64,000 nucleotides of DNA from the NCBI GenBank assembly GCA_019636245.1, contig JAHBXX010000001.1, forward strand, positions 73,859-137,858, read 5' to 3'. Below are positions 3,884 to 61,542 of this stretch, in pieces (the stretch's first letter is position 1; the number at the start of each line of letters is the position of its first letter). The notes under the pieces are model-generated. The model did not search any database. It was not told the origin of the DNA and saw only the letters and a list, made by a program, of their open reading frames with translations. Made by a program: the position numbers and the translations under genes. This DNA comes from Planctomycetota bacterium (GTDB lineage Bacteria > Planctomycetota > UBA1135 > UBA2386).

Positions 3884-4504
3884 TTGCCGGGCCCACGACG
3901 CACGCTGTTCCGCGCCATCGCGCTCGCCGCCGCGGCGGCGGCCTCGACCGCCTGCACCGGCTTCGCGCCGCCGCGCCCGGCGACGCTGGCACGGCTGCGG
4001 CCGCTGCGGGCGGACCCCGTGCCGGCCCGGTTCGAGGTCGAGATCGAGTCGCCGGCCTTGACCGGCGTGTTCGACGCGGTGTTCGCGCCCCAGCCGCACG
4101 GCTTCGCGCTGCAGCTGTTCCCCGACATCGGCGCCAAGGTGCTCGACCTGACCGTCGCCGGCGGCGCCGTCGCCGCCGACACGCCGGCGGGCCCCTGGGC
4201 GGCGGCGGCGCCGTTCGCCGGCGCCGCGCCGCACCTGGCGCTGCTGCTGGCCGTCGCCCTGGCGGAACTGGGGGCGCCGGCCGCCGCCGAGCGTGTGCTC
4301 GGCGAACGGCCGCTGCCCGGCGGCCGGACCGAACTCGCGCTGCGGCCTGTGCTCGACGGCGTGACCGTGCGGGTCGAGCTGGCGGCGGACGGCGCGGTGG
4401 TGGCCTGCCAGCTCGAGGTGGCGGGGTTCGGCTGCCGGCTCGAGGCCGACGGCCTGACCGCGCCCTCCGTGCGGGTGCGGTTCCACTGGCCAGCCGAAGG
4501 TTGA
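3884..4504 (+). CDS. Hypothetical lipoprotein (start uncertain)
   Basis: TTG 3884 gives PGPRRTLFRAIALAAAAAASTAC, a signal peptide with a lipobox-like Cys. Longer starts would overlap the divergent acyltransferase. No recognisable domain. Confidence 0.5.
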   Translation: MPGPRRTLFRAIALAAAAAASTACTGFAPPRPATLARLRPLRADPVPARFEVEIESPALTGVFDAVFAPQPHGFALQLFPDIGAKVLDLTVAGGAVAADTPAGPWAAAAPFAGAAPHLALLLAVALAELGAPAAAERVLGERPLPGGRTELALRPVLDGVTVRVELAADGAVVACQLEVAGFGCRLEADGLTAPSVRVRFHWPAEG

Positions 4505-14307: not shown

Positions 14308-16260
14308 TCAGGAGCCGGGCAGGCGCCAGCCGTCGCCGGCGGCGGGGGCGGGGCGGTCGAGCGTGAAGTGCAGGCGCATGTCGACCACCCGCTTGGCGTT
14401 CGCGGCGCTCGCCGGCGCGCCGGCGCGCAGCTTCACCTGCATGCGGCCCTTGGCACAGGCCTCGACGGCGATCTCGGGCGCGAGCGGTCCCCCCAGCGCG
14501 AACTTGTGGTTGGGGGCCTGGGTGAAGGCCGCGACCTTGCCGTCGCTGCCGGACAGCAGCAGCAGGTCGTGCTCGATCGGCACCTCGAGCCCGTCGACGC
14601 GCACGAACTTCAGGCCGTTGGCGGCGTCCTTGCTGGCCACGTCGGCCTCGGTGAGGCCGTAGCGGGCGACGATCTCGCGCCAGCCGCCCTTGCCCGGCGC
14701 CGCCGCCTCGGTCTCGCCGTTCTTCGGCTTCTTCGCCGGCGCCGCGAGCTCCTTGTGGCCGACCTTGACCGCCTCGGTCAGCTCGCGCGGCACGCCCTGC
14801 TTGCGGAACAGCACCGCGTAGGCCCCGGCCGGCAGTTCGGGCGCCGCGAGCGGCACCGTCGTCACCAGCACGCCGACCAGCAGCGGCTGCTGCTGCGTCG
14901 CGTCGAGCAGCTTGCCGAGCTCGGGGTTCTTGTCGGCCGAGAGCCAGTTGACCGGCGCGAACGAGATGGCGTCGTAGGCGGTCGGGAAGCCGTCGGCGCC
15001 GAGTTCGTAGCGCTCGGCACCGACCTGCTGGCCGAGGTCGACGTCCTGCTGGGTGAGGAACACGTTGCGGTTGAAGGCGCCGCGCAGCGTCGAGAGCAGC
15101 AGGTCGTAGCCCGGCCGCAGGCTCTTCGCCAGCCGCACGCCGACCGAGGCCAGCACGTCGATGGTCTGCATCGGCGCCCGGGCGTCGATCAGCAGCGTGA
15201 TCGGCTCGCCGCCAGACAGGTAGGAGCCGCCCTTGGCGAGCGCGCGGTCGTCCTTCCACATCGGCGGCGACGACAGCAGCGCCCCGACCTTGTCCTTCTG
15301 CAGGCGCTTCCACTCGTCGGTGAACGGGTCCTCGCCGTTGATCGGCCGGTAGCCGGTGCCGGACACCAGCTGCCAGACCTGGCCGAACATGTCGGCATGG
15401 CCGAACGGGCCGGCCGCCGCGGCCACGGTCCCGACCGGTTTGCGGTCGCGATCGCTCGACTTCAGGATGCGCAGCTGCTCGAGCGCCGCCTCGGTGAAGA
15501 CGTCGTTCTTGGGCTCGCCGGCGCCCCACGGCCAGACGTGGTTGCCGTCGCCGCGGGCGGCGCGCGTCCACTCGGCCTCGGTCGGCAGCCGCATGCCGAG
15601 CGACGCGGCGAACGCGTTCGCCTCGCGGTAGTCGACGAAGGTCACCGGCCGGTCGGCGAACGACTTGCCGGCCTTGTCGGTGAGGCCGTACGGCAGTTCG
15701 GTGGCGTGCCGTTCCCAGTAGAGCAGCGGCCCCAGCTCCTCGCCGGGGAACTCCTTGGTGATCTCGGGCAGGCGCGCGGTGTAGTCGTCCTCGCGGCCGT
15801 AGCGCCACCAGTCGAACGGCGAGCGCACCGGCCCGGTCTTGCTCTTCTCCTTCAGGTAGCGCTCCCACTGGGCGCAGGTCACGGGCGTGCGGGCCAGCAG
15901 GAAGGGTTCGACGGCGACCTTGCGCGGCCCGAGCACGGAGGCGCTCTGCTTCAGCAGCAGCGAGACCTTGCTGGCCGAGATCTTGGCGGCGACGTCGGGC
16001 CGGGCCGGGCTCACCACCTGGCAGGTCGCCTGCACCAGCCGATCGGCGCCGAGACCGATCTCGACGGTGCCGCCTGGCACCGGCAGCAGGAAGGTCGGCA
16101 GGCCGGCGACGGCCGGCGCGGCCGGGGGCGTCGGGGCGGCGGAGCCAGCGGCCTGGGCGGTGATGGCCGCCGTCTGCGCGCAGGCCGCCGCCAGCAGGAG
16201 ACCGCAGGGCAGCATCGATCGGGTCACGGCGAGCAGCGAGTTCGGGTGCATGCAGCGCAT
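14308..16260 (-). CDS. Lipoprotein with formylglycine-generating-enzyme (SUMF1/EgtB-type) domain and a roughly 300-aa C-terminal extension of unknown function
   Basis: ATG 16260. Lipobox (LLLAAAC). FGE-type segment (FLLARTPVTCAQWERYL...VTFVDYREANAFAASLGMRLPTEAEWTRAARG...KGGSY). The rest of track ORF 14308..17667 is shadow. Confidence 0.8.
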   Translation of the reverse strand: MRCMHPNSLLAVTRSMLPCGLLLAAACAQTAAITAQAAGSAAPTPPAAPAVAGLPTFLLPVPGGTVEIGLGADRLVQATCQVVSPARPDVAAKISASKVSLLLKQSASVLGPRKVAVEPFLLARTPVTCAQWERYLKEKSKTGPVRSPFDWWRYGREDDYTARLPEITKEFPGEELGPLLYWERHATELPYGLTDKAGKSFADRPVTFVDYREANAFAASLGMRLPTEAEWTRAARGDGNHVWPWGAGEPKNDVFTEAALEQLRILKSSDRDRKPVGTVAAAAGPFGHADMFGQVWQLVSGTGYRPINGEDPFTDEWKRLQKDKVGALLSSPPMWKDDRALAKGGSYLSGGEPITLLIDARAPMQTIDVLASVGVRLAKSLRPGYDLLLSTLRGAFNRNVFLTQQDVDLGQQVGAERYELGADGFPTAYDAISFAPVNWLSADKNPELGKLLDATQQQPLLVGVLVTTVPLAAPELPAGAYAVLFRKQGVPRELTEAVKVGHKELAAPAKKPKNGETEAAAPGKGGWREIVARYGLTEADVASKDAANGLKFVRVDGLEVPIEHDLLLLSGSDGKVAAFTQAPNHKFALGGPLAPEIAVEACAKGRMQVKLRAGAPASAANAKRVVDMRLHFTLDRPAPAAGDGWRLPGS

Positions 16261-22818: not shown

Positions 22819-24396
22819 TCAGTCGACGACGCGCAGCACCGGGTGGTGCGCGCCGAGGTCGGCGTCGAAGAAGTTCCAGGTCGTCAGTGAATCCTCGCTC
22901 TCGGGCTCGAGCAGCGTCGCGGCCAGGCGCGCGAGCGGCTGCCGGGCGTCGATCCACAGGGTGCCGGCCGGCAGGTCGACCGCCTCGGCCGCGAGCCAGT
23001 CGCCTTCGAGCACCAGCTCCTGATGGCCCTGGAACGGGCGCTTGGGCCGCCGCTGCTTCGCCACCGCGAAGCGCTGCGCGCGCGCCGGCTGCGCCGCCGC
23101 CAGCGTGGTCGCCTGCACGCCGTGCCAATCCAGCCGCTCGCGCACCGCGGCGGGGGGCGAGGGGATCGCCCAGGCGGCCGGCAGCTCGCGGTGGCGCCCG
23201 GCCGCGAACGCGCGCACGACCGGCATGCGCTCGGGCACGCCGTCGCCGCGCCGCTGCAGGCGCAGCGGCCGGCCGTCGCGCGGTTCGATGCGTTCGACCG
23301 CGCCGACCAGCACGTCGAGCGGCTCGGCGGCCGCGAACGTGGTCGCGAAGCCGAACGCCACCGCGGCGTCGCGCTGCACCAGCCGGCGGTCGGCGGCGGC
23401 GCACGCGCGTTCGCAGTCGTCGCGCAGCGCCGCCAGCGCCTCGACCAGGCACAGCACGAACGCGCGCGTCGCCGCGATCCTGGTCGCGAAGTCGCAGTAG
23501 CTGTAGGCCTCCGCGAGCACCGCCAGCCGGTTGCGCAGGCCGTGGTAGTTGACGCCGTAGCGGGCGCGGTGGTCGTAGGTGTACCAGCCGCGCACGGAGG
23601 CCCCCGACTCCGGCGCGCCACCGCCGTCCCGGTCCCGCGTCTCGAAGTTGCCGTAGTCGAAGGTCGCGAAGCCGTGCCGATCGCGCATCGCCGCCTGGGC
23701 GCGGTCGAGCAGCGCGCGGTTGACTTGCGCCAGCTGCGCGTCGACGTTCGGCGACAGGCTCGGGGCGTAGGTCAGGTGGTAGCCGTGGTGCGAGCCGTTG
23801 GTCGTGTGCAGGTCGACGAACAGGTGCGGATCGAGCTCGCGGAACAGGGCCAGCAGCGCCCGCGTCTCCGGCGCCTCGGCCTTGACGAAGTCGCGGTTGA
23901 GGTCGAGACCCTGGCCGTTGCTGCGCTCGCCGACCGCGTCGGGCCCGTTCTGGCCCGGGCGGTTGCCGACGGCGATCGCCTCGTTGCCGTCGACGTTGTA
24001 GATCGGCACCAGGCACAGCTCGACCTGCCGCAGCAGCTCGGTGTGCTCGCCGAGCGCGAACTCGCGCACCAGCTGTTGCAGGGCCTCCTTGCCCTCGATC
24101 TCCCCGCCATGGATGGCGCCGATCACCAGCACCCGCAGGCGGGGCGCAGGCGCCGCCTCGCGCAGCGCCACGTGCACGAGCTGCAGCTCGCGATCCTGGT
24201 GCGAGGCCCGGCGCTCGAGGCGCAGGCGGTCGCCGTGCGGCAGTGCGGCGGCGGCGCGGCAGAAGCGCTCGACGTCGGCCGCGCGGGAGGTGGCCGCGTG
24301 GGCGCTCGACTCGGCCACGGTCTGCGGGAGCGGCGGCGGCAGCGGCGGCGGGGGCGACTGCGGCGCCAGCAACAGACCGAGCAGCACCGACGGCAT
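22819..24396 (-). CDS. M14-family zinc carboxypeptidase (secreted)
   Basis: ATG 24396. HxxE zinc motif (IHGGEIEG), NVDGNE, NRDF, and the third ligand context (FVDLHTTNG). The upstream part of track ORF 22819..25152 is shadow. Confidence 0.85.
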   Translation of the reverse strand: MPSVLLGLLLAPQSPPPPLPPPLPQTVAESSAHAATSRAADVERFCRAAAALPHGDRLRLERRASHQDRELQLVHVALREAAPAPRLRVLVIGAIHGGEIEGKEALQQLVREFALGEHTELLRQVELCLVPIYNVDGNEAIAVGNRPGQNGPDAVGERSNGQGLDLNRDFVKAEAPETRALLALFRELDPHLFVDLHTTNGSHHGYHLTYAPSLSPNVDAQLAQVNRALLDRAQAAMRDRHGFATFDYGNFETRDRDGGGAPESGASVRGWYTYDHRARYGVNYHGLRNRLAVLAEAYSYCDFATRIAATRAFVLCLVEALAALRDDCERACAAADRRLVQRDAAVAFGFATTFAAAEPLDVLVGAVERIEPRDGRPLRLQRRGDGVPERMPVVRAFAAGRHRELPAAWAIPSPPAAVRERLDWHGVQATTLAAAQPARAQRFAVAKQRRPKRPFQGHQELVLEGDWLAAEAVDLPAGTLWIDARQPLARLAATLLEPESEDSLTTWNFFDADLGAHHPVLRVVD

Positions 24397-26925: not shown

Positions 26926-27789
26926 TCAGCGGCGCCCGGCCGGTTCGTCCTGCAGCAGGCGTTCGGCGTAGAGGGGCAGCCGCTGCACCAGGGCCCATGC
27001 GGCCGCGGGGTCGACCGCCGCGCGCTGGTCGATCGCAGCGGCGAGGTCGCGCAGCAGCGCGGCCTGCGGCGGCGGCAGCTCCTCGTCGCGCAACGCCGCG
27101 TCCAGGTTGCGTCGCACGCGCGCGAGGCCGGTCGCCAGGTCGCCGGCGACCACCGGCGGCCGCCAGTCGGCGAAGTAGAGCGTGCGCAGCGCGTCGGCCT
27201 GGGCCGTCTCGCCCTGCAGCTCGGCGCGCAGGATGTCGGCGGCGTAGACGCGCTCGCTGGCGCGCGCCACGTCGGCGCTGCGGCCGCGGCTGTTCGCCGT
27301 CGCCATGCGCTGGCGCCAGCGGTCGCGCAGGCTCGGCCCGACCTGTCGCATGATCCAGTCCTCGGCGGCCGCCACCACGGGACGCAGCGGCGGCAGATGG
27401 CCGGCCTCGGTGGCCAGCGCCGGCAGCACCGTCCTGGGCTCGCCCCGGACGCGGGCCAGCAGTTCGGTGGCGGGCAGGCGGGCCGCGGCCGCGGCGAACG
27501 CGGCGCGCAACGGCGGCGGCGCGTCGGCCAGGTCGCTCGCCGGCGCCGGCACGACCTGCAGCCGCGCGAGTTCACAGAGCCGCGCCGCCGCCACCCAGCG
27601 TTCGAGGTGGCCCGGTCGGGTGTCCGCGGCGACCTGCCGGTAGCCGGCGGCGGCAGCTGCCGGATCGAGGTCGAGGACTTCCCGCAGCCAGGCGTCGTGC
27701 AGCGTCGTCGCCGCCGGGTCCTGGCCCGGCATGGCGACGGCCAGGAGCCCCGTGGCCAGCCACCGGAGCACCGTGGAGCGAGCGCTCAC
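26926..27789 (-). CDS. Hypothetical secreted protein, translationally coupled to the response regulator
   Basis: The GTG start overlaps the regulator stop (GTGA). The signal peptide ends ...LLAVAMPG|QDPA. No recognisable domain. Confidence 0.6.
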   Translation of the reverse strand: MSARSTVLRWLATGLLAVAMPGQDPAATTLHDAWLREVLDLDPAAAAAGYRQVAADTRPGHLERWVAAARLCELARLQVVPAPASDLADAPPPLRAAFAAAAARLPATELLARVRGEPRTVLPALATEAGHLPPLRPVVAAAEDWIMRQVGPSLRDRWRQRMATANSRGRSADVARASERVYAADILRAELQGETAQADALRTLYFADWRPPVVAGDLATGLARVRRNLDAALRDEELPPPQAALLRDLAAAIDQRAAVDPAAAWALVQRLPLYAERLLQDEPAGRR

Positions 27790-48241: not shown

Positions 48242-48949
48242 ATGGTACGCCGCCACGTTGCCACCACCGTTGGCGCCGCGCTGCTGCTCGCGGCGGGCGC
48301 CGTTCGCGCGCAGCACTGCGCGCCGCTCTACGACTGCTACCTGAGCCAGTCTTGGGTGCAGAAGCTGCCGGCCGAGCCGGAGTCCGCCGACCGGCTGCGG
48401 ATCCGCGCGCAGTTCGCCAAGGAAGGGGGCGCTGGCGACAAGCCGGCCTACCAGGGCTACCTGGTGGCGTACCTCGATCGGAACGCGGACAGGGTCCCAG
48501 CCGCCGCGCCCGCGGACCTGCTGGACCCGAAGGCCGCGGTGGTGCTGCACACGCAGTTGATGCGGCGCAACGAGAAGGAAGGCGTCCCCGGGCCTTGGAC
48601 CTACGACCTCGAGTTCACGATCCGCGGCGAGGACCTCGTCGACAGGCTGATCGCGCACGCCGGCCTCGGTGCCGAGGACCGCGAGGACCGGGGCCACTGG
48701 CACCACTACGTGGACCGCATCCGCTTCGCGGTGTTCGTGCCGTGGCTCGCCGACGCGAAGTACTCCGTGCTCGGCGGGCTGCCCGACGATCGGCACGAGT
48801 GCAACTACGAGCACGCCCGTGCTCTCCTGTTCCAGGAGCTGCCCTTCCGGGTGCAGTTCTCCGTGAGCCGGTCGACCGACCCGCGGGCCTTCGTGTGGAT
48901 CCGCGTGCGCAGCGAGCGGGCCGGGCCCGACGCCCCGCAGGCGAAGTAG
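48242..48949 (+). CDS. Hypothetical secreted protein
   Basis: The signal peptide ends ...AAGAVRA|QHCA. Normal composition (YLVAYLDRNADRV..., HWHHYVDRIRFAVFVPW...). No recognisable domain. Confidence 0.7.
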   Translation: MVRRHVATTVGAALLLAAGAVRAQHCAPLYDCYLSQSWVQKLPAEPESADRLRIRAQFAKEGGAGDKPAYQGYLVAYLDRNADRVPAAAPADLLDPKAAVVLHTQLMRRNEKEGVPGPWTYDLEFTIRGEDLVDRLIAHAGLGAEDREDRGHWHHYVDRIRFAVFVPWLADAKYSVLGGLPDDRHECNYEHARALLFQELPFRVQFSVSRSTDPRAFVWIRVRSERAGPDAPQAK

Positions 48950-50922: not shown

Positions 50923-50934
50923 GAGGTTTCCATG
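50923..50934 (+). promoter_or_regulatory. Shine-Dalgarno (GAGG) plus ATG 50932: probable natural translation start of the galactose-oxidase-like gene
   Basis: The sequence is gaGAGGtttccATG, with 5-nt spacing. The ATG is in frame +1 relative to the long downstream ORF because of the repeat length. Confidence 0.6.
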
Positions 50935-50941
50935 CGCACGC

Positions 50942-50985
50942 GGAAGGAAGGAAGGAAGGAAGGAAGGAAGGAAGGAAGGAAGGAA
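50942..50985 (+). repeat. Perfect tetranucleotide microsatellite (GGAA)11
   Basis: Counted directly: 11 uninterrupted GGAA units, followed by an imperfect GGGA. It lies 7 nt after the ATG codon at 50932-50934 and 22 nt before ATG 51008. Confidence 0.97.
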
Positions 50986-51007
50986 GGGAGGCGCGCTCGT
51001 CGCGCTG

Positions 51008-52690
51008 ATGCTGTCCGCCCTCGGTGGGGAATCGATGCCGGCGCAGAGCTGGAGCAACCCGTTCCAACACAATCAGCCGCATGCCGGCACCGGCGGCTTC
51101 ACGAGCCCCTATTCGCCGTGGAGCCTGCTGCCGGGGTCGAACGCTCCGGCGCCGAGCAGCATCTTCACGGCCCCCGCCACGGTGCCGGCGCAGGTGGCAT
51201 GGTCGGGTGGCGGCGTGTTCGTGAAGGGCTGGCCGCAGCCGGAGCCGCTGCACAACGGACGTAGCTTCAACGCCGTGCACATGGCGCTGATTCCGAAGGG
51301 ACCCTACCGCGGCCACGTGCTGGTCTGGAACCACGTCGAGTGCTACGCGCTCGTGAATCCTCCCGGCGTTCCACCGCTCTCCACGCCGCAGCCCGGCGAG
51401 ATCGTGACGCAGGGATACCAAGCCTATGCGATCGTCGATCCGGCCGATGCCCCACTGCACGGCATCCGCTACCGCAACTTCCTGGTGCCGACGGGCGACG
51501 AGCTGCGCCTGCCGGAGTCCTGGCCGGTGATCGCGAAGAACATGTTCTGCGCCGGCCACGCGTGGTCGCCATACGGCGACCTGATCGTGCCGGGTGCGAC
51601 TGAGTTCGAACTGGTGATCCCGCCGCCACCGGCCGCACCCTCCGTCGCCTACGGGGGCGGCAGCCTGGTCTACGTGTTCAATCCTCGCCGCACGTGCCAG
51701 TGGCCGGGCACGCCGACCGAGTACTACCCGTCGACGGTCGCCGCGGGCAGCCCGAGCGCCGACGACTACCGTGGCCTGTGGGCGCGCGCCGCCGACCTCG
51801 CCGTGCCGCGCTGGTACCCGACCGCGACGCTGACGCACCGGCTCCTGCGGCAGGCGATCCATCCGCAGACCGGGCCGATTCCCGGCACGGCGAACCGGGA
51901 GCGCATGGTATTCCTCGGCGGCAGCGTGACGGTGCCGGCGCTGCCCGGCGACCACGCGAACTTCAGCTACGAGGCCTACGTGATCCTCGGCGAGTGCGAC
52001 AACCAGCCCCCGAACCGCAGCAAACTGGTGCCGGACTACGCCAGCGGTCCGGCGCCGTTCGTACCGACGTCCCTGCAGCAGGACCGGATCTGGAACGGGC
52101 CAGGCATCAGCCCGGTGCTCGGCTCGCTGCCGCAGGATTGGCTCTACGAGTACCCGCGCACGTTCCTGCTCTCGTCCGGCGAGCTGTTCTTCAGCGGTTA
52201 CGCGCCGCGTGGGGCATGGCTGGAGCATGATGGCGCGCCGGGGCTGTGGGCGCAGGCCGCGGCCCAGCCTGGGGCACCCGGCACCTACAGCAGCAACTGG
52301 CCGGAGATCCGGCACGATGGCAGCGCCGTGCTCTTCCCCAACCTCGGCGGCAATGCCGACGTCGTGCTGCGCCTGGGGGGCGCGAAGGGCCACGGCGGCG
52401 CGGCCACCGACACGATGGAGTCGATCGCCGCTGGCAGCACTGCCAGCACGTGGACTGCCGCGCCGTCGATGCCATCCGAGGACGTTTCGATCGATGGTGG
52501 CCGGTTGTTCGCCAACACGGTGATCCTGCCGACCGGCGGGCTGTTGATCCTGGGCGGGCTGTGGCAGGACGGCGGCGGCGCCGAGCAACCGCTCTACCAC
52601 CCGCTGCTGTTCGAGGGCGGCCAGTGGCACAAGATGCGGGTGTTCCTCGGCGGGGGGCCGTCCGAGCCGATCTGGGTGGTGCTGCGATGA
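51008..52690 (+). CDS. Galactose oxidase/glyoxal oxidase-like kelch-propeller protein (body of a putatively phase-variable gene; first in-frame ATG shown)
   Basis: Family motifs NMFCAGHAW (Cys of the Tyr-Cys cofactor context), PRWYPTATL, PLYHPLL. The frame stays open upstream through the repeat. The ATG at 51008 sits inside what would be the signal-peptide h-region (ALVALMLSALGGESMPA|QSW). Confidence 0.75.
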   Translation: MLSALGGESMPAQSWSNPFQHNQPHAGTGGFTSPYSPWSLLPGSNAPAPSSIFTAPATVPAQVAWSGGGVFVKGWPQPEPLHNGRSFNAVHMALIPKGPYRGHVLVWNHVECYALVNPPGVPPLSTPQPGEIVTQGYQAYAIVDPADAPLHGIRYRNFLVPTGDELRLPESWPVIAKNMFCAGHAWSPYGDLIVPGATEFELVIPPPPAAPSVAYGGGSLVYVFNPRRTCQWPGTPTEYYPSTVAAGSPSADDYRGLWARAADLAVPRWYPTATLTHRLLRQAIHPQTGPIPGTANRERMVFLGGSVTVPALPGDHANFSYEAYVILGECDNQPPNRSKLVPDYASGPAPFVPTSLQQDRIWNGPGISPVLGSLPQDWLYEYPRTFLLSSGELFFSGYAPRGAWLEHDGAPGLWAQAAAQPGAPGTYSSNWPEIRHDGSAVLFPNLGGNADVVLRLGGAKGHGGAATDTMESIAAGSTASTWTAAPSMPSEDVSIDGGRLFANTVILPTGGLLILGGLWQDGGGAEQPLYHPLLFEGGQWHKMRVFLGGGPSEPIWVVLR

Positions 52691-54333: not shown

Positions 54334-54621
54334 TCAGCGGCGCACGGTGAACGCGCCGCCGGCCGGGGCGTACGCCACTTCCGCCACGTCGACTGAGTCG
54401 ACGCTCGCCAGGGGCGGCCCCTGTCCGAGCCAGCGCACGAACGCGGCCACGCCGTCGGCGGCGCCCTGCGCCTCGCCCGCGACGGCGCCATCGGCCCGGT
54501 TCTGCACGAACCCCGACAGGCCGCACCGTCGCGCCTCGGCGGCGGCGCTGGCCCGGAAGCCGACTCCCTGCACGCGGCCGCGGACCAGGAACGTGATGCG
54601 CCGCATCGGCGGCCCCGCCAT
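54334..54621 (-). CDS. acyP: Acylphosphatase
   Basis: The VRGRVQGVGFR signature. ATG 54621 shares one nt with the upstream stop (TGATG). ATG 54606 is an alternative start. Confidence 0.85.
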   Translation of the reverse strand: MAGPPMRRITFLVRGRVQGVGFRASAAAEARRCGLSGFVQNRADGAVAGEAQGAADGVAAFVRWLGQGPPLASVDSVDVAEVAYAPAGGAFTVRR

Positions 54622-55643
54622 CAGCGGCCGGCGAGCACGTAGACCCGCTCGACCTCGGGCAGCATCGTCAGCACGACGTCGGCCGTGATCTGCAGGCTCG
54701 CGGGCGCCATGTGCTCGATCGTGTCCTGCTCCGTGTGCCAGTAGGGGTTGCCGTTCAGGTCGATCAGGTCGACGGCGGGGATGCCGACGTCGAGGAACGG
54801 CTTGTGGTCGTCGCTGGCCGCTTCGGCGCGCTGGTAGAAGTGCCGCTGGTGGCCGCAGGCGACCGCCGCCGACCAGACGATCTGCCGCAGCCGCTCGGTC
54901 GAGTACAGCTCCTCCTGGATGTGCAGGTCGGCGCGGCCGACCATGTCGAGCAGGATCAGGGCCTCGATGCGCGCCTCCTGGCCGAGCAACAGGGCGTCGC
55001 GGTGGCGCTGCACGAAGCGCTTGCTGCCGAACAGCGCGCGCACGCCCTCGTTCCAGGCCCAGTCGAGGCTCTCCTCGCCGTCGAAGAAGACCAGCTCCAG
55101 CGTCGCCTCACGTTCGGCCCGCTGCAGCACCGGCGCCAGGGCCAGCAGCAGCGCCACCGCGCTGGCGCCGTCGTTGGCGCCGACGAAGTGGAAGTTGTGC
55201 GCCGGGTCGGCGTGGCCCTGCATGCACTTGGTGTCGTGGTGGCAGGCGAGCACGATGCGCTCGGGTCGTCGGCCCGGGATCACCGCGCTCAGGTTGGTGA
55301 ACGTCAGCAGCTCCTTGCGGTCCGTCCAGGTGTCGCGCCGCACCTCGAGACCAAGCGCCCGCAGGTGGCGTTCGATGTAGTCGAGCTGCTGCGACCAGCC
55401 GGGCGTGCCGCTGTGGCGCGGGCCGAAGCCCGTCAGCGCCCGCACGTGCGCGAACGCCTCGTCGCCGAGGTCTGCCGGCGCCCGCACCGGCGGCAGCGGC
55501 GTCGTCGCCCGCTTGTCGATCGTCTGCTGCGCCGCGGGGCGCTCCGGGGCCGGGGTGGCGGCGAAGCCGCCGCCGGCGACGGCCGCGCCGATGCAGGCGA
55601 CGAGGCCGATCGCGCAGCAGCCGAGGGCCGAGGAGGCGCGCAT
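54621..55643 (-). CDS. M28-fold lipoprotein, glutaminyl-peptide cyclotransferase (type II QC)-like, copy 2
   Basis: ATG 55643. Lipobox (GLVAC). Blocks LACHHDTK, FVGANDGASAVA, FFDGEESLDWAW...LFGSKRF, LLDMVG, SDDHKPFLDVGIPAVDLIDL...YWHTEQD. Confidence 0.8.
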   Translation of the reverse strand: MRASSALGCCAIGLVACIGAAVAGGGFAATPAPERPAAQQTIDKRATTPLPPVRAPADLGDEAFAHVRALTGFGPRHSGTPGWSQQLDYIERHLRALGLEVRRDTWTDRKELLTFTNLSAVIPGRRPERIVLACHHDTKCMQGHADPAHNFHFVGANDGASAVALLLALAPVLQRAEREATLELVFFDGEESLDWAWNEGVRALFGSKRFVQRHRDALLLGQEARIEALILLDMVGRADLHIQEELYSTERLRQIVWSAAVACGHQRHFYQRAEAASDDHKPFLDVGIPAVDLIDLNGNPYWHTEQDTIEHMAPASLQITADVVLTMLPEVERVYVLAGR

Positions 55644-55651
55644 CGTCCGGT

Positions 55652-56683
55652 TCACTTGCGGCCGAGCACGAAGGCCTCGAGGTCGGGCAGCGCCTGCAGC
55701 ACCAGGTTGCCGGCAAACGCCAGCGCGCGCGGGTCGGTGGCCGGCAGGTCGTCGTCGGCGGTGTGCCACCACTGCTCGTAGCGCGGGTCCTTGGCGGCGC
55801 CCGGGATGCGGCGGTCGAAGTCGATCAGCAGCACGCTCGGCACGCCGTAGCGGCTGAAGGTCGCGTGGTCGTCGACGATGCCCCACTTCTGGCCGCGGCG
55901 CTGCAGCTCGGCGATCTCCTGGGGCTTGGGGAACTCGTAGAGGCGCTTCGATTCGCCCATCGCCTTGGCGGCGCGCTCGAACAGGTCCTGCAGGCGGCCG
56001 TCCGAGTTGCCGTCGCGGTCGATCTTCCAGTCCTTGCTGCCGATCAGGTCGAGCAGCACGAACGCCTTGACGCGCGCCAGCGTCTTCGACTCCGACAGCC
56101 ACTTGCAGAACGCCTTGCTGCCGAGCAGCGCGCGTTCGTCGTTCCAGGTCCAGTCCAGGGACTCCTCGGCGTCGATCCAGTAGAGCCAGATGTTGACCTT
56201 GGGCCGCTGGGGCCGCTGGGCGAGCACGCGCGCCAGCTCCAGCAGCACCGCCGGGCCGCCGCCGCCGTCGATCGCGCCGACGAACGGGAAGTTGTGCGCC
56301 GCATCCTGGTGGCCGGAGGCCAGCTTGGTGTCGTAGTGCGCGCCGAGGATCAGGATCGGCCCCTGCGCCGGGTCCTCGCCGTCGATCTGCACCCACAGGT
56401 TGCGGATCATCTTCTTCTCGGTCGCGTGCTCGACTTCCTGCCGCTGCGGCGACAGGCCGAGCCGCGTCAGTTCGCCGGTGATGTAGTCGGCGGCCTTGGC
56501 GAGCGCCTCGGACCCGAACGGACGCGGGCCGAGGGCGACGAGGCGCTCGAGGTGTGCGTGCGCGCGGGCGCCGTCGACCGGGCCCTGCGCGCCGCCGCAG
56601 CCGGCGGTGGGCAGGACCAGCAGGACCGCGGCGACGACGGCCGCAGCGGCGAACGTGGGGGTGCGCGAGGGGCCGACGTGCAT
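55652..56683 (-). CDS. M28-fold lipoprotein, glutaminyl-peptide cyclotransferase (type II QC)-like, copy 1
   Basis: Lipobox (LPTAGC). Blocks LGAHYDTK, FVGAIDGGGGPA, IDAEESLDWTW...LLGSKAF, LLDLIG, VDDHATFSRYGVPSVLLID...WWHTADD. Confidence 0.8.
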   Translation of the reverse strand: MHVGPSRTPTFAAAAVVAAVLLVLPTAGCGGAQGPVDGARAHAHLERLVALGPRPFGSEALAKAADYITGELTRLGLSPQRQEVEHATEKKMIRNLWVQIDGEDPAQGPILILGAHYDTKLASGHQDAAHNFPFVGAIDGGGGPAVLLELARVLAQRPQRPKVNIWLYWIDAEESLDWTWNDERALLGSKAFCKWLSESKTLARVKAFVLLDLIGSKDWKIDRDGNSDGRLQDLFERAAKAMGESKRLYEFPKPQEIAELQRRGQKWGIVDDHATFSRYGVPSVLLIDFDRRIPGAAKDPRYEQWWHTADDDLPATDPRALAFAGNLVLQALPDLEAFVLGRK

Positions 56684-56812
56684 CGCCGCACGTTAGCACC
56701 GGCCGGCGCGCGGGGTCAAAAGCCTCATGGCACGGGGTGCTCGCGTCGATAGCATGGCGTGGGCCGCTGCTGCGGTTTCACGCACAGGCCGGGGCTCGGC
56801 GAGGCGCACGTC

Positions 56813-58840
<2,028 letters not shown>

Positions 58841-58847
58841 GGCGCAC

Positions 58848-59954
58848 GTGTCCGTCCGACGGATCGACCAGGACCACACACGGTTCCGCCAGATCGTGCG
58901 CGGCAGGATCAAGCAGGACCTGAAGCGCTTCGTCAGCTCCGGCGAACTGATCGGCAAGCAGGGGCAGCGCTACGTCACGATCCCGTTGCCGCAGATCACG
59001 CTGCCGCGGTTCCGCTACGGCTCGAACCAGAAGCAGGGCGTCGGCCAGGGCGAGGGCGAGAACGGCCAGCCGGTGCCCGGGCAGGACGGCGACGGCCAGG
59101 GGCAGGCCGGCGAGGAGGCGGGTCGGCACACGCTCGAGGTCGAGGTGCCGCTCGACGAGCTGGCGAAGATCCTCGGCGAGGAACTCGAACTGCCGAACAT
59201 CGAGCCGCGCGGGCGCCGCAACCTGCGCGCCAGCGCCGGCCGCTACACCGGCATATCGCGTTCGGGCCCGATGTCGCTGCGGCACTTCAAGCGCACCTTC
59301 CGCGAGGCGCTGAAGCGCCAGATCGCCTCGGGCACCTACGACGCCCGCAACCCGGTGATCGTGCCGATCCGCGACGACCTGCGCTTCCGCGCCCTGCAGA
59401 CCCGCGAGGTGCCGCAGGCCAGCGCCGCGATCGTCTACATGATGGACGTGTCGGGCTCGATGGGCCGCGAGCAGAAGGACATCGTGCGCATCGAGGCGTT
59501 CTGGATCGACACCTGGCTCCGGCACCAATACAAGAACCTGCAGGTGCACTACATCGTGCACGACGCGGTCGCGCACGAGGTCGACCAGCACACGTTCTTC
59601 CATCTGCGCGAGAGCGGCGGCACCAAGATCAGCTCGGCCTACGAGCTGTGCCTGCAGCTGGTGCGCGATCGCTACCCGGCGCAGGAATGGAACGTCTACC
59701 CGTTCCACTTCAGCGACGGCGACAACTGGAGCACGCGCGACACCGAGCACTGCGTCGCCCTGCTGCGCGACAGCCTGCTGCCGGTCTGCAACCAGTTCTG
59801 CTACGGCCAGGTCAAGAGCGCCTATGGTTCCGGCCAGTTCAAGAAGGACCTCGACGTGGCGTTCCGTGGCGACGACAAGGTCGTGACGACGGACATCCAG
59901 GATCGCGAGGGCATCCTGCCGTCGATCAAGGCGTTCCTGGGCAAGGGCAGATGA
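58848..59954 (+). CDS. YeaH/YhbH-family protein (DUF444, vWA-like)
   Basis: GTG 58848. [17 protein letters not shown]..., a Gly/Gln/Glu-rich linker, and a MIDAS-like DVSGSM. Confidence 0.9.
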
Positions 59955-60009
59955 GGCGCCATCCCGCCGACCGCGGCGCGGGCGCGCCGCCGCACCCGAG
60001 ACTCCCGAC

Positions 60010-61542
60010 ATGGGCAACCTGACCCCCGAACTCGCGGCCCTGCGCGACGAGACGCGCGACCTGGCGAAGAGCTACGGTCTCGACTTCTACGAGGTGATCT
60101 TCGAGCTCGTCGACCACGACGAGCTGAACATGATCGCCAGCTACGGCGGCTTCCCGACCCGCTATCCGCACTGGCGCTTCGGCATGGAGTACGAGCACCT
60201 GACGAAGTCGTATGCCTACGGCCTGTCGAAGATCTACGAGCTGGTCGTCAACAACGACCCCTGCTACGCGTACCTGATGCGCAGCAACTCGATCACCGAG
60301 CAGAAGCTGGTGATGGCGCACGTCTACGGCCACTGCGACTTCTTCAAGAACAACGCGTGGTTCGCGCACACCTCGCGCAAGATGATGGACGTGCTGGCCA
60401 ACCACGGCGCGCGCATCCGGCGCTACATGGACCGGCACGGCCAGGAGCGGGTCGAGAACTTCATCGACGTCGTGCACTCGCTCGACAACCTGATCGACCC
60501 CTACTCGCCCTACATCGACCGGGGCACCGAGCCGCGCGCGACGAGGCGCCGCGAAACCGAGGCGGCGCCGCGCGAGGTGCGCAAGATCGCCGCCAAGGAC
60601 TACATGGACCGCTACATCAACCCGCCCGAGTTCCTGCGGCGGGAGCAGCAGCGGCTGGCGGCGGAGGAGCAGCAGGAACGCCACTTCCCGGCCCGGCCGG
60701 TGCGCGACGTGCTGAAGTTCCTGCTCGACCACGCGCCGCTCGAGACCTGGCAGCAGGACGTGCTCGCGATGCTGCGCGACGAGGCCTACTACTTCGCGCC
60801 GCAGGGCATGACGAAGATCATGAACGAGGGCTGGGCGGTCTACTGGCACAGCCGGCTGATGACGCGGCACCTCTGCGACGCCAGCGAGGTCGTGCAGTAC
60901 TGCGACACGCACAGCGGCACGCTGTCGACCCGGCCGGGGCAGGTCAATCCCTACAAGCTCGGCGTCGAGCTGTTCCGCCACATCGAGGAGCGCTGGGACC
61001 ACGGCCGCTTCGGCGCCGAGTACCAGGCCTGCGACGACCCCGAGGTTCGCAAGCGCTGGAGCCGGCCGACGCAGCAGGGTCGGGCCAAGATCTTCGAGGT
61101 GCGGGCGATCTACAACGACGTCACCTTCATCGACGAGTTCGTGACGCCGGAGTTCGCCGAGGAGCAGAAGATGTTCGTCTACGGCCAGGATCCGCAGACC
61201 GGACAGCTGGTGATCGTCGACCGCGACTACCGGAAGGTGAAGGAGCAGCTGCTGGCCGCGTTGACCAACTTCGGCAACCCGATCATCAAGGTCGTCGACG
61301 GCAACCACCGCAACCGCGGCGAGCTCTACCTGGTGCACGAGTGGGTCGGCGGCGACCTGCAGCTCGAGCAGGCGCAGCTGACGTTGCAGGGCCTGCAGCG
61401 GTTGTGGGGCCGGCCGGTGCACATCGAGACGATCGAGAACGGCAAGGGCCGCCTGCTGAGCTTCGACGGCGAGACGGCCAGTTCGACCGAGGTCGCCGCC
61501 AGCCATCCGGCGGTGGGCAGGGTGGGCAGCGGATCCGCATGA
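60010..61542 (+). CDS. SpoVR/YcgB-family protein
   Basis: The pattern FYEVIFELVDHDELNMIASYGGFPTRYPHWRFGMEYE..., VMAHVYGHCDFFKNN. Confidence 0.93.
   Translation: MGNLTPELAALRDETRDLAKSYGLDFYEVIFELVDHDELNMIASYGGFPTRYPHWRFGMEYEHLTKSYAYGLSKIYELVVNNDPCYAYLMRSNSITEQKLVMAHVYGHCDFFKNNAWFAHTSRKMMDVLANHGARIRRYMDRHGQERVENFIDVVHSLDNLIDPYSPYIDRGTEPRATRRRETEAAPREVRKIAAKDYMDRYINPPEFLRREQQRLAAEEQQERHFPARPVRDVLKFLLDHAPLETWQQDVLAMLRDEAYYFAPQGMTKIMNEGWAVYWHSRLMTRHLCDASEVVQYCDTHSGTLSTRPGQVNPYKLGVELFRHIEERWDHGRFGAEYQACDDPEVRKRWSRPTQQGRAKIFEVRAIYNDVTFIDEFVTPEFAEEQKMFVYGQDPQTGQLVIVDRDYRKVKEQLLAALTNFGNPIIKVVDGNHRNRGELYLVHEWVGGDLQLEQAQLTLQGLQRLWGRPVHIETIENGKGRLLSFDGETASSTEVAASHPAVGRVGSGSA

Follow-up and report, generated by a model that had tools for sequence, protein, structure and literature searches.

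In Bacteroidetes such as Porphyromonas gingivalis, most substrates of signal peptidase I (SPI) carry Gln where the mature protein begins, the +1 position (the Q-rule; PMC5837995; PMC10653852). The cyclase of P. gingivalis, PgQC (PG2157), is a type II glutaminyl cyclase (QC) with the M28 fold, a predicted lipoprotein of the periplasmic side, and is proposed to cap exported proteins against aminopeptidases. A blocked N-terminus that resists aminopeptidases has been shown as a function in P. gingivalis (PMC10653852), and in Flavobacteriia the rule is served by type I cyclases (PMC5837995). The rule has been called exclusive to Bacteroidetes, after tests of Bacteroidetes, Chlorobi, Spirochaetes, Chlamydiae and Cyanobacteria (Bochtler et al. 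2018, PMC5837995; Szczesniak et al. 2023, PMC10653852), and has been explained by their proteolytic lifestyle (PMC10653852). Here, a 64,000-nt stretch of contig JAHBXX010000001.1 (the window), with 74% G+C and from a metagenome-assembled genome (MAG) of the phylum Planctomycetota, is compared with these systems. Its exported proteins have Gln at predicted +1 positions, and it contains tandem genes for two putative type II cyclases, QC1 and QC2. A first-pass annotation had proposed from these two features that a Q-rule operates outside the Bacteroidetes.

Type II cyclases are also found in other groups. Those of Fimbriiglobus ruber (PDB 7d1b) and of an Acidobacteriales bacterium (7d18) are bacterial, come from outside the Bacteroidetes and have the same Glu-Glu motif as QC1 and QC2; a literature search by these two PDB codes returned no corresponding paper. 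Human QC (QPCT) and Golgi isoQC (QPCTL) have the same fold, but they act on selected hormone and chemokine substrates and not on the bulk secretome. The di-zinc M28 aminopeptidases, such as those of Vibrio/Aeromonas proteolytica (AAP, 1amp) and Streptomyces griseus (SGAP, 1cp7) and the YwaD protein of Bacillus subtilis (6hc6), have the Pfam family, the fold and five metal-ligand positions in common with QC1 and QC2. The type I (plant or β-propeller) bacterial cyclases catalyse the same reaction with an unrelated fold, and none was seen in the window. Literature searches found no paper that ties Planctomycetes to pyroglutamate, the Q-rule or glutaminyl cyclase.

Gln at +1 in the window

A self-trained codon model gave a set of ~60 genes for the window, and each N-terminus was then examined by eye. 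Gln stands directly 3' of the predicted AxA-type site in all ten canonical SPI substrates (Table 1), which have in common a positively charged n-region, a hydrophobic region of 10-18 residues and a small residue at -1, followed by a CAG codon for Gln. No SPI substrate with another residue at +1 was found among the ~60 genes. The other hydrophobic N-termini belong to six lipoproteins (genes at 3884, 11643, 14308 and 26466, QC1 and QC2), as had been counted before, and to membrane proteins. Given that Gln makes up only 3.4% of residues overall and 2.6% of those that follow AxA-like triplets inside mature proteins, chance is excluded as the source of the pattern; the probability of 10/10 is ~2e-15 from composition and ~1e-7 with an assumed baseline of 20%. 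The twelve N-termini listed in the first-pass annotation are all present in the sequence, but its statement that every SPI-type peptide is followed by Gln stands firmly for the ten canonical cases, which include the gene at 27789, and is weaker for the genes at 24396 and 51008.

The gene at 14308-16251 (minus strand), with the N-terminus ...CGLLLAAACAQTAAITAQ, permits two readings, either as a lipoprotein (LAAA↓C) or with an SPI site (ACA↓QTAA).

Gln at +1 across related genomes

A scan of GTDB genomes based on QC2 yielded 40 loci of 3-21 kb each from related MAGs with 55-74% G+C, and the extended sample of the clade comprises ~680 kb from 44 related genomes. The strict test, which is blind both to Gln and to any model of cleavage, scores the first polar residue after the hydrophobic core. 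In the 40 loci, 34 of 55 strict signal peptides have Gln there, given an expected share of 0.11 (p=2e-19). A small residue followed by Gln ([AGSCT]-Q) lies within 6 residues of the core end in 38/55 of the same set, where E, D, R, K, N, H, S and T each account for 1-8. With looser filters, a cleavage-blind index counts 58/96 raw candidates from the window and 44 loci in which [AGSCT]-Q stands where the hydrophobic region ends. Of the 38 candidates that lack it, most can be put down to QC lipoproteins, to membrane proteins or anchors, and to cytoplasmic false positives, and hand curation leaves ~6-7 credible signal peptides with another residue.

Two blind scorers of cleavage sites were also used, neither of which reads the +1 residue; the second version added the polarity of positions +2 to +6. 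Gln is still by far the commonest +1 residue with both (24/55 and 20/55; p=1e-15 for the second). Aligned on Gln, the motif has L/A/V at -3, P/L/A at -2, Ala at -1 (47/58) and frequent Pro at +3 and +5. Relatives with 55-65% G+C have the same pattern, and distant relatives, in which QC2 is 44-47% identical, retain both the A↓Q peptides and the gene order around the cyclases. Within the fetched loci, Gln at +1 could be followed from orthologue to orthologue for two pairs only; the orthologue of the SGNH-like hydrolase in one related locus (L001) reads LPA↓QDAE.

These results support the view that Gln at +1 characterises the lineage and is no local accident. Gln is the majority residue at +1, as a Q-rule demands, in the window (10/10) and among the relatives by the strict, raw and curated counts alike. 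The apparent Q-value, here predicted from sequence, is 100% for the window and ~90% for the relatives after hand curation, at least as high as the 71% mean for Bacteroidetes.

Some contigs, clearly from the clade, were submitted under other names (Luminiphilus sp., candidatus Brocadiaceae and Kuenenia stuttgartiensis, for L028, which is JBERSB010000328.1, for L005/L021/L027 and for L020), probably due to mis-binning or mislabelling.

QC1 and QC2 as probable type II cyclases

The first-pass annotation had described two tandem paralogous lipoproteins with motif blocks of cyclase type rather than of generic M28 type, and both the pair and every quoted block are present. QC1 and QC2 are 34% identical to each other. 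Their NCBI entries (MBX3461627.1 and MBX3461626.1) belong to a 207-kb contig of a "Planctomycetes bacterium" MAG and are annotated as M28 peptidases only. Likewise, Pfam sees only Peptidase_M28 (PF04389; E=1.6e-31 for QC1 and 8.8e-35 for QC2), and NCBIfam gives only sub-threshold matches to aminopeptidases or deacylases.

The best PDB sequence matches of QC1 (7d18, 6qro, 3tc8 and 6qql) are all cyclases. For QC2, phmmer gives E-values of 7e-31 for 7d18, 2e-26 for 7d1b, 3e-24 for PgQC and 4e-13 for human QC, with aminopeptidases at 1e-9 or weaker; overall, the di-zinc aminopeptidases range from 1e-9 to 7e-3 and the cyclases from 1e-31 to 1e-14. AlphaFold2 models of QC1 and QC2 (mean predicted local distance difference test scores of 87.9 and 82.6) have the α/β fold of Peptidase_M28 and align to solved cyclases with template-modelling scores of ~0.8, normalised to the target. 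In a Foldseek search of the PDB, the top 15 matches of QC1 and the top 16 of QC2 are all glutaminyl cyclases, from Acidobacteriales, P. gingivalis, F. ruber, Tannerella forsythia, Bacteroides thetaiotaomicron and Drosophila. The Acidobacteriales enzyme 7d18 is the best match of both proteins in sequence and in structure. The comparison of PgQC and human QC with M28 aminopeptidases that the first-pass annotation had suggested thus ranks cyclases first by both phmmer and Foldseek, and QC1 and QC2 are closer to proven cyclases than to aminopeptidases. By sequence, QC2 is the more canonical cyclase of the pair. Identities are ~24-29% to PgQC, 24-29% to 7d18 and 7d1b, and 21-29% to human QC.

Both paralogues were aligned to human QC, with its numbering checked against the PDB sequence. 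Thirteen positions (H140, D142, K144, D159, E201, E202, W207, D248, D305, D306, H307, W329 and H330) show no variation among 38 QC1 and 38 QC2 orthologues. The window proteins and these orthologues therefore keep the zinc ligands Asp159, Glu202 and His330 and the catalytic Glu201. The carboxylate network Glu201-Asp305-Asp248, which reportedly distinguishes cyclases from aminopeptidases, and the pocket residues Lys144, Trp207 and Trp329 are also invariant in both families; human QC has all of them, and Asp305, Lys144, Trp207 and Trp329 set QC1 and QC2 apart from the di-zinc aminopeptidases. The metal and catalytic pair is Glu-Glu, as in animals, whereas it is Glu-Asp in ~91% of the Bacteroidetes enzymes ("TEDY" in PgQC). 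All 76 orthologues have Gly at position 160, beside the bridging Asp, as does PgQC. Human QC has Ser160 and Pro163 where the A. proteolytica aminopeptidase (ApAP) has Asp118 and Gly121, and Asp118 is proposed to permit the second zinc site (PMC11312887). Judged by sequence alignment, QC1 and QC2 lack this Asp of the di-zinc aminopeptidases. In QC1, two insertions lie near the DDH and WH motifs.

Both proteins are predicted to be membrane-anchored and to face the periplasm. The lipobox Cys of QC1 is conserved ahead of GP[IV]DG in relatives. The N-terminus of QC2 has a conserved AAC[IFL]GAA inside an apolar stretch of ~26 residues, and the Cys is absent from one relative in the QC2 50% cluster (P0122). 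The tether of QC2 could therefore be that of a lipoprotein or a signal-anchor, and some members of the family may use a signal-anchor, similar to the N-terminal membrane tether of human Golgi isoQC.

QC1 and QC2 are adjacent in 39 of the 40 loci, usually divergent from prkA-DUF444-spoVR, and the tandem is also adjacent in the deeper relatives, at 44-47% identity. Therefore, the duplication is old and both copies are under selection. This differs from the Bacteroidetes, with one enzyme, and from the F. ruber-type gene, which is single, stands in another genomic context and encodes a signal-anchor instead of a lipobox. The earlier suggestion of two specialised cyclases gains from the long-term retention of both copies and from their intact active sites, and found no further support as to specialisation. 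Possible splits between QC1 and QC2 are by membrane location, by Gln versus Glu substrates or by +2/+3 context.

Other Planctomycetota as controls

The control genomes were run through the same pipeline as the clade sample, and the control samples are small. The Gemmatales/Isosphaerales sample (226 kb) consists of the surroundings of Fimbriiglobus-type cyclases and two plasmids. The Isosphaera and Singulisphaera plasmids have very few secreted proteins, and PLSDB, queried by tblastn with a DUF1501 protein, returned only one planctomycete plasmid, so the contexts of F. ruber-type cyclases were taken instead. The [AGSCT]-Q index is 6/30 in this sample, with Glu in 7 and Asp in 4, as compared to 58/96 in the window clade (Fisher p=1.3e-4). 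Gln does not dominate at +1 in these Planctomycetia, even though they are equally G+C-rich. The pattern proposed from the window alone is thus found again in 44 genomes of relatives, and far less strongly in other Planctomycetota, which would place a Q-rule-like system in the Planctomycetes-Verrucomicrobia-Chlamydiae (PVC) group rather than in the Fibrobacteres-Chlorobi-Bacteroidetes (FCB) group.

The Gemmatales/Isosphaerales loci (L056, L060, L061, L063, L064 and L066) each have one Fimbriiglobus-type cyclase gene, which in most cases lies downstream of a sigma-70 gene. In these loci, Glu comes after the signal peptide as often as Gln does (VAA↓EKMD, LPA↓EPIP). Cyclases act slowly on Glu, and these orders might make mixed use of Gln and Glu.

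Proposed mechanism

It is likely that this uncultured lineage of Planctomycetota runs a Q-rule of the Bacteroidetes type, and pyroglutamate capping of its exported proteins is very probable, as judged from the sequences. In this scheme, Sec would export the pre-proteins, and SPI would cut after L/A/V-x-A, such that almost all soluble exported proteins begin with Gln. One or both of the membrane-tethered, periplasm-facing cyclases, predicted to be mono-zinc enzymes of the M28 fold, would then convert this Gln to pyroglutamate. The cap would remove the free α-amino group and, by analogy with P. gingivalis (PMC10653852), might protect the proteins from aminopeptidases. The combined evidence supports the inference that the known mechanism operates in a new lineage of the PVC group, with a duplicated cyclase. 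A stronger version is more doubtful than not: that the cap evolved independently and is essentially obligatory for the whole Sec/SPI secretome, with penetrance at least that of the Bacteroidetes and ancient tandem cyclases that share the job, such that the Q-rule is convergent in the FCB and PVC groups.

Counter-evidence and alternative explanations

Several points weigh against this proposal. The sample, window included, amounts to ~0.75 Mb over 45 genomes and is mostly the surroundings of the QC locus, not whole genomes, and cleavage sites were predicted with a home-made heuristic. The fully blind site picker places Gln at +1 in just 20/55, because Ala-rich h-regions contain many AxA sites; given that such a scorer is often off by 1-3 residues in Ala-rich peptides, the cleavage-free tests are preferred. 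Cyclase activity is not readable with certainty from sequence, since M28 cyclases and aminopeptidases share their fold and metal ligands. As to novelty, a planctomycete type II cyclase has already been crystallised (F. ruber, 7d1b), and a cyclase in the phylum is not new.

Gln at +1 is also not rare elsewhere. The raw index is 8/23 in 300 kb of a Ralstonia megaplasmid and 4/17 in 100 kb of Escherichia coli, which offers too few signal peptides. The former, the high-G+C control from Ralstonia pseudosolanacearum GMI1000 (NC_003296; L041, L043-L047), has A↓Q in 6/11 strict peptides; it is itself Gln-rich and therefore not a clean negative control. Gln at +1 may thus be common in this betaproteobacterium, despite the described exclusivity of the rule. 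This agrees with the continuum of Q-values reported outside the Bacteroidetes (Bochtler et al., PMC5837995), where Ignavibacterium reaches 77% and some cyanobacteria 40-67% (PMC5837995), and with the nine periplasmic proteins with pyroglutamate detected in Novosphingobium (PMC3608174). Across bacteria, Gln at +1 forms a continuum, in which the clade stands out by its near-total penetrance, not by Gln at +1 as such. Therefore, the novelty lies in the lineage and the penetrance, not in the principle. Finally, Gemmatales have a proven cyclase and yet no Q-rule, and the presence of a cyclase alone does not imply the rule.

The separability of cyclase and rule in Gemmatales, together with the moderately Gln-rich samples of Ralstonia and E. 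coli, lends some weight to the alternative that Gln at +1 is a substrate preference of SPI or Sec, or a sorting signal for another system, and that the two M28 proteins are unrelated to it. This is unlikely, given that exactly the clade with Gln at +1 retains throughout a pair of periplasm-facing enzymes whose cyclase active site is complete, and that Gln at an N-terminus cyclises even with no enzyme. The equivalent pairing in Bacteroidetes was shown to mean cyclisation, and a connection with secretion sorting was rejected there (PMC5837995).

QC1, QC2 or both could instead be ordinary M28 aminopeptidases, as annotated by NCBI, with a likeness to cyclases at the level of the family only. The Pfam and NCBIfam matches are in line with this. 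In addition, the S. griseus aminopeptidase takes rank 16-17 in the Foldseek lists, its E-value only ~7 orders weaker, and QC1 scores about equally by sequence with human QC and YwaD. The pocket residues Gln304, His319 and Phe325 of human QC, not counted here as family-defining, are replaced by T/K, L and R/Q in QC1 and by S/A, D and G in QC2. However, the best sequence matches and the 15-16 best structural matches are cyclases with shown or deposited function, the cyclase-specific Asp305 and its network are invariant along with Lys144, Trp207 and Trp329, and the Asp that aminopeptidases have beside the bridging Asp is Gly in these proteins. The aminopeptidase reading is accordingly improbable, and QC1 and QC2 are predicted to be active glutaminyl cyclases.

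Least credible of all, and already largely refuted here, is an artefact of sampling or composition in an Ala-rich genome of 74% G+C read with a biased heuristic: some A↓Q pairs may have been picked by eye among frequent AxA triplets, and the crude blind predictor often took neighbouring sites, but Gln follows internal AxA-like triplets in only 2.6-3.6% of cases in the same genomes, the first-polar-residue test depends on neither Gln nor a cleavage model, and the pattern is found in relatives of 55-65% G+C and not in the equally G+C-rich Gemmatales/Isosphaerales.

Significance

If the proposal is true, a second and remote clade with the same rule changes the picture of a trait restricted to Bacteroidetes. 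The clade would combine the rule with a differently derived cyclase, duplicated and of the Glu-Glu type, and with a distribution in wastewater, freshwater and soil, and thus would offer an independent test of the explanation by proteolytic lifestyle. Together with Gemmatales, which have a cyclase and no rule, it would show that a phylum can gain or lose the trait. Gln at +1, with its mass shift of -17 Da, would serve as a sequence marker to map the planctomycete proteins that truly cross the cytoplasmic membrane, which bears on the long debate over cell compartments in these bacteria. Signal-peptide predictors could adopt lineage-specific priors for +1, and ~2,000 database proteins (E<=1e-10), mostly annotated as "M28 family peptidase", would deserve re-annotation.

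Features of the window and neighbouring genes

Table 1. Cyclase genes, predicted signal peptides with their Gln codon, and neighbouring features, in window coordinates. The arrow marks the predicted cleavage site.
Feature	Position	Strand	Remarks
QC1, 343-aa lipoprotein, putative type II (M28-fold) glutaminyl-cyclase paralogue	55652..56683	-	MBX3461627.1, NCBI "Zn-dependent exopeptidase M28"; lipobox LPTAG↓C
QC2, 340-aa membrane-tethered putative paralogue	54621..55643	-	MBX3461626.1, NCBI "M28 family peptidase"; AAC lipobox Cys in 26-residue apolar stretch
LolA-like protein, signal peptide and Gln codon	5837..5890	+	MRSRLGMLLLAAAALPA↓QEPP (ALPA↓QEPP)
HEAT/TPR-like protein, signal peptide and Gln codon	9280..9354	+	...VVGGSVRA↓QDTP
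EF-hand-like protein, signal peptide and Gln codon	25241..25309	-	...AAAPPGLA↓QDAG
Gene at 27789, signal peptide and Gln codon	27721..27789	-	...GLLAVAMPG↓QDPA; Gly at -1
491-aa secreted protein, signal peptide and Gln codon	32233..32316	-	...ILVSTALA↓QAPM
NagZ-like fusion, signal peptide and Gln codon	37865..37918	+	MRRRVGLGLLASAALAA↓QDPV (LAA↓QDPV)
SGNH-like hydrolase, signal peptide and Gln codon	40585..40641	+	...SFLCAALPA↓QDAA
Propeller protein, signal peptide and Gln codon	46985..47044	+	...SWFGTALAA↓QAPA
Gene at 48242, signal peptide and Gln codon	48242..48313	+	...LLAAGAVRA↓QHCA
FG-GAP protein, signal peptide and Gln codon	52687..52749	+	...LVAVGALPA↓QQLL
Ambiguous case	24358..24396	-	MPSVLLGLLLAP↓QSPPPP; short, no positive charge, Pro at -1, no alternative upstream start
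Ambiguous case, kelch-like gene 51008-52690	50932..51046	+	ATG at 50932, (GGAA)12.5, followed out of frame by ...GGALVALMLSALGGESMPA↓QSWS (MPA↓QSWS)
Ambiguous case, gene 14308-16251	16174..16251	-	LLLAAAC lipobox; alternative SPI reading ACA↓QTAA
prkA / DUF444 (yeaH) / spoVR operon	56759-61542	+	divergent from the cyclase pair

At 0.67, the G+C content of the prkA operon is lower than elsewhere in the window, and between the 40 loci its sequence identity is 83-97%. Even distant relatives keep it linked to the cyclases, and a functional connection is not evident.

The tetranucleotide repeat (GGAA)x12.5 at 50942-50991 lies immediately 3' of an ATG (MRTRKEGRKEGR...). Due to the repeat, the ATG at 50932 is out of frame with the kelch/galactose-oxidase-like open reading frame at 51008-52690, and gain or loss of repeat units would bring the start codon, n-region and signal peptide back into frame with it. 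This reading frame is therefore a candidate for a secreted protein that is phase-variable by slipped-strand mispairing.

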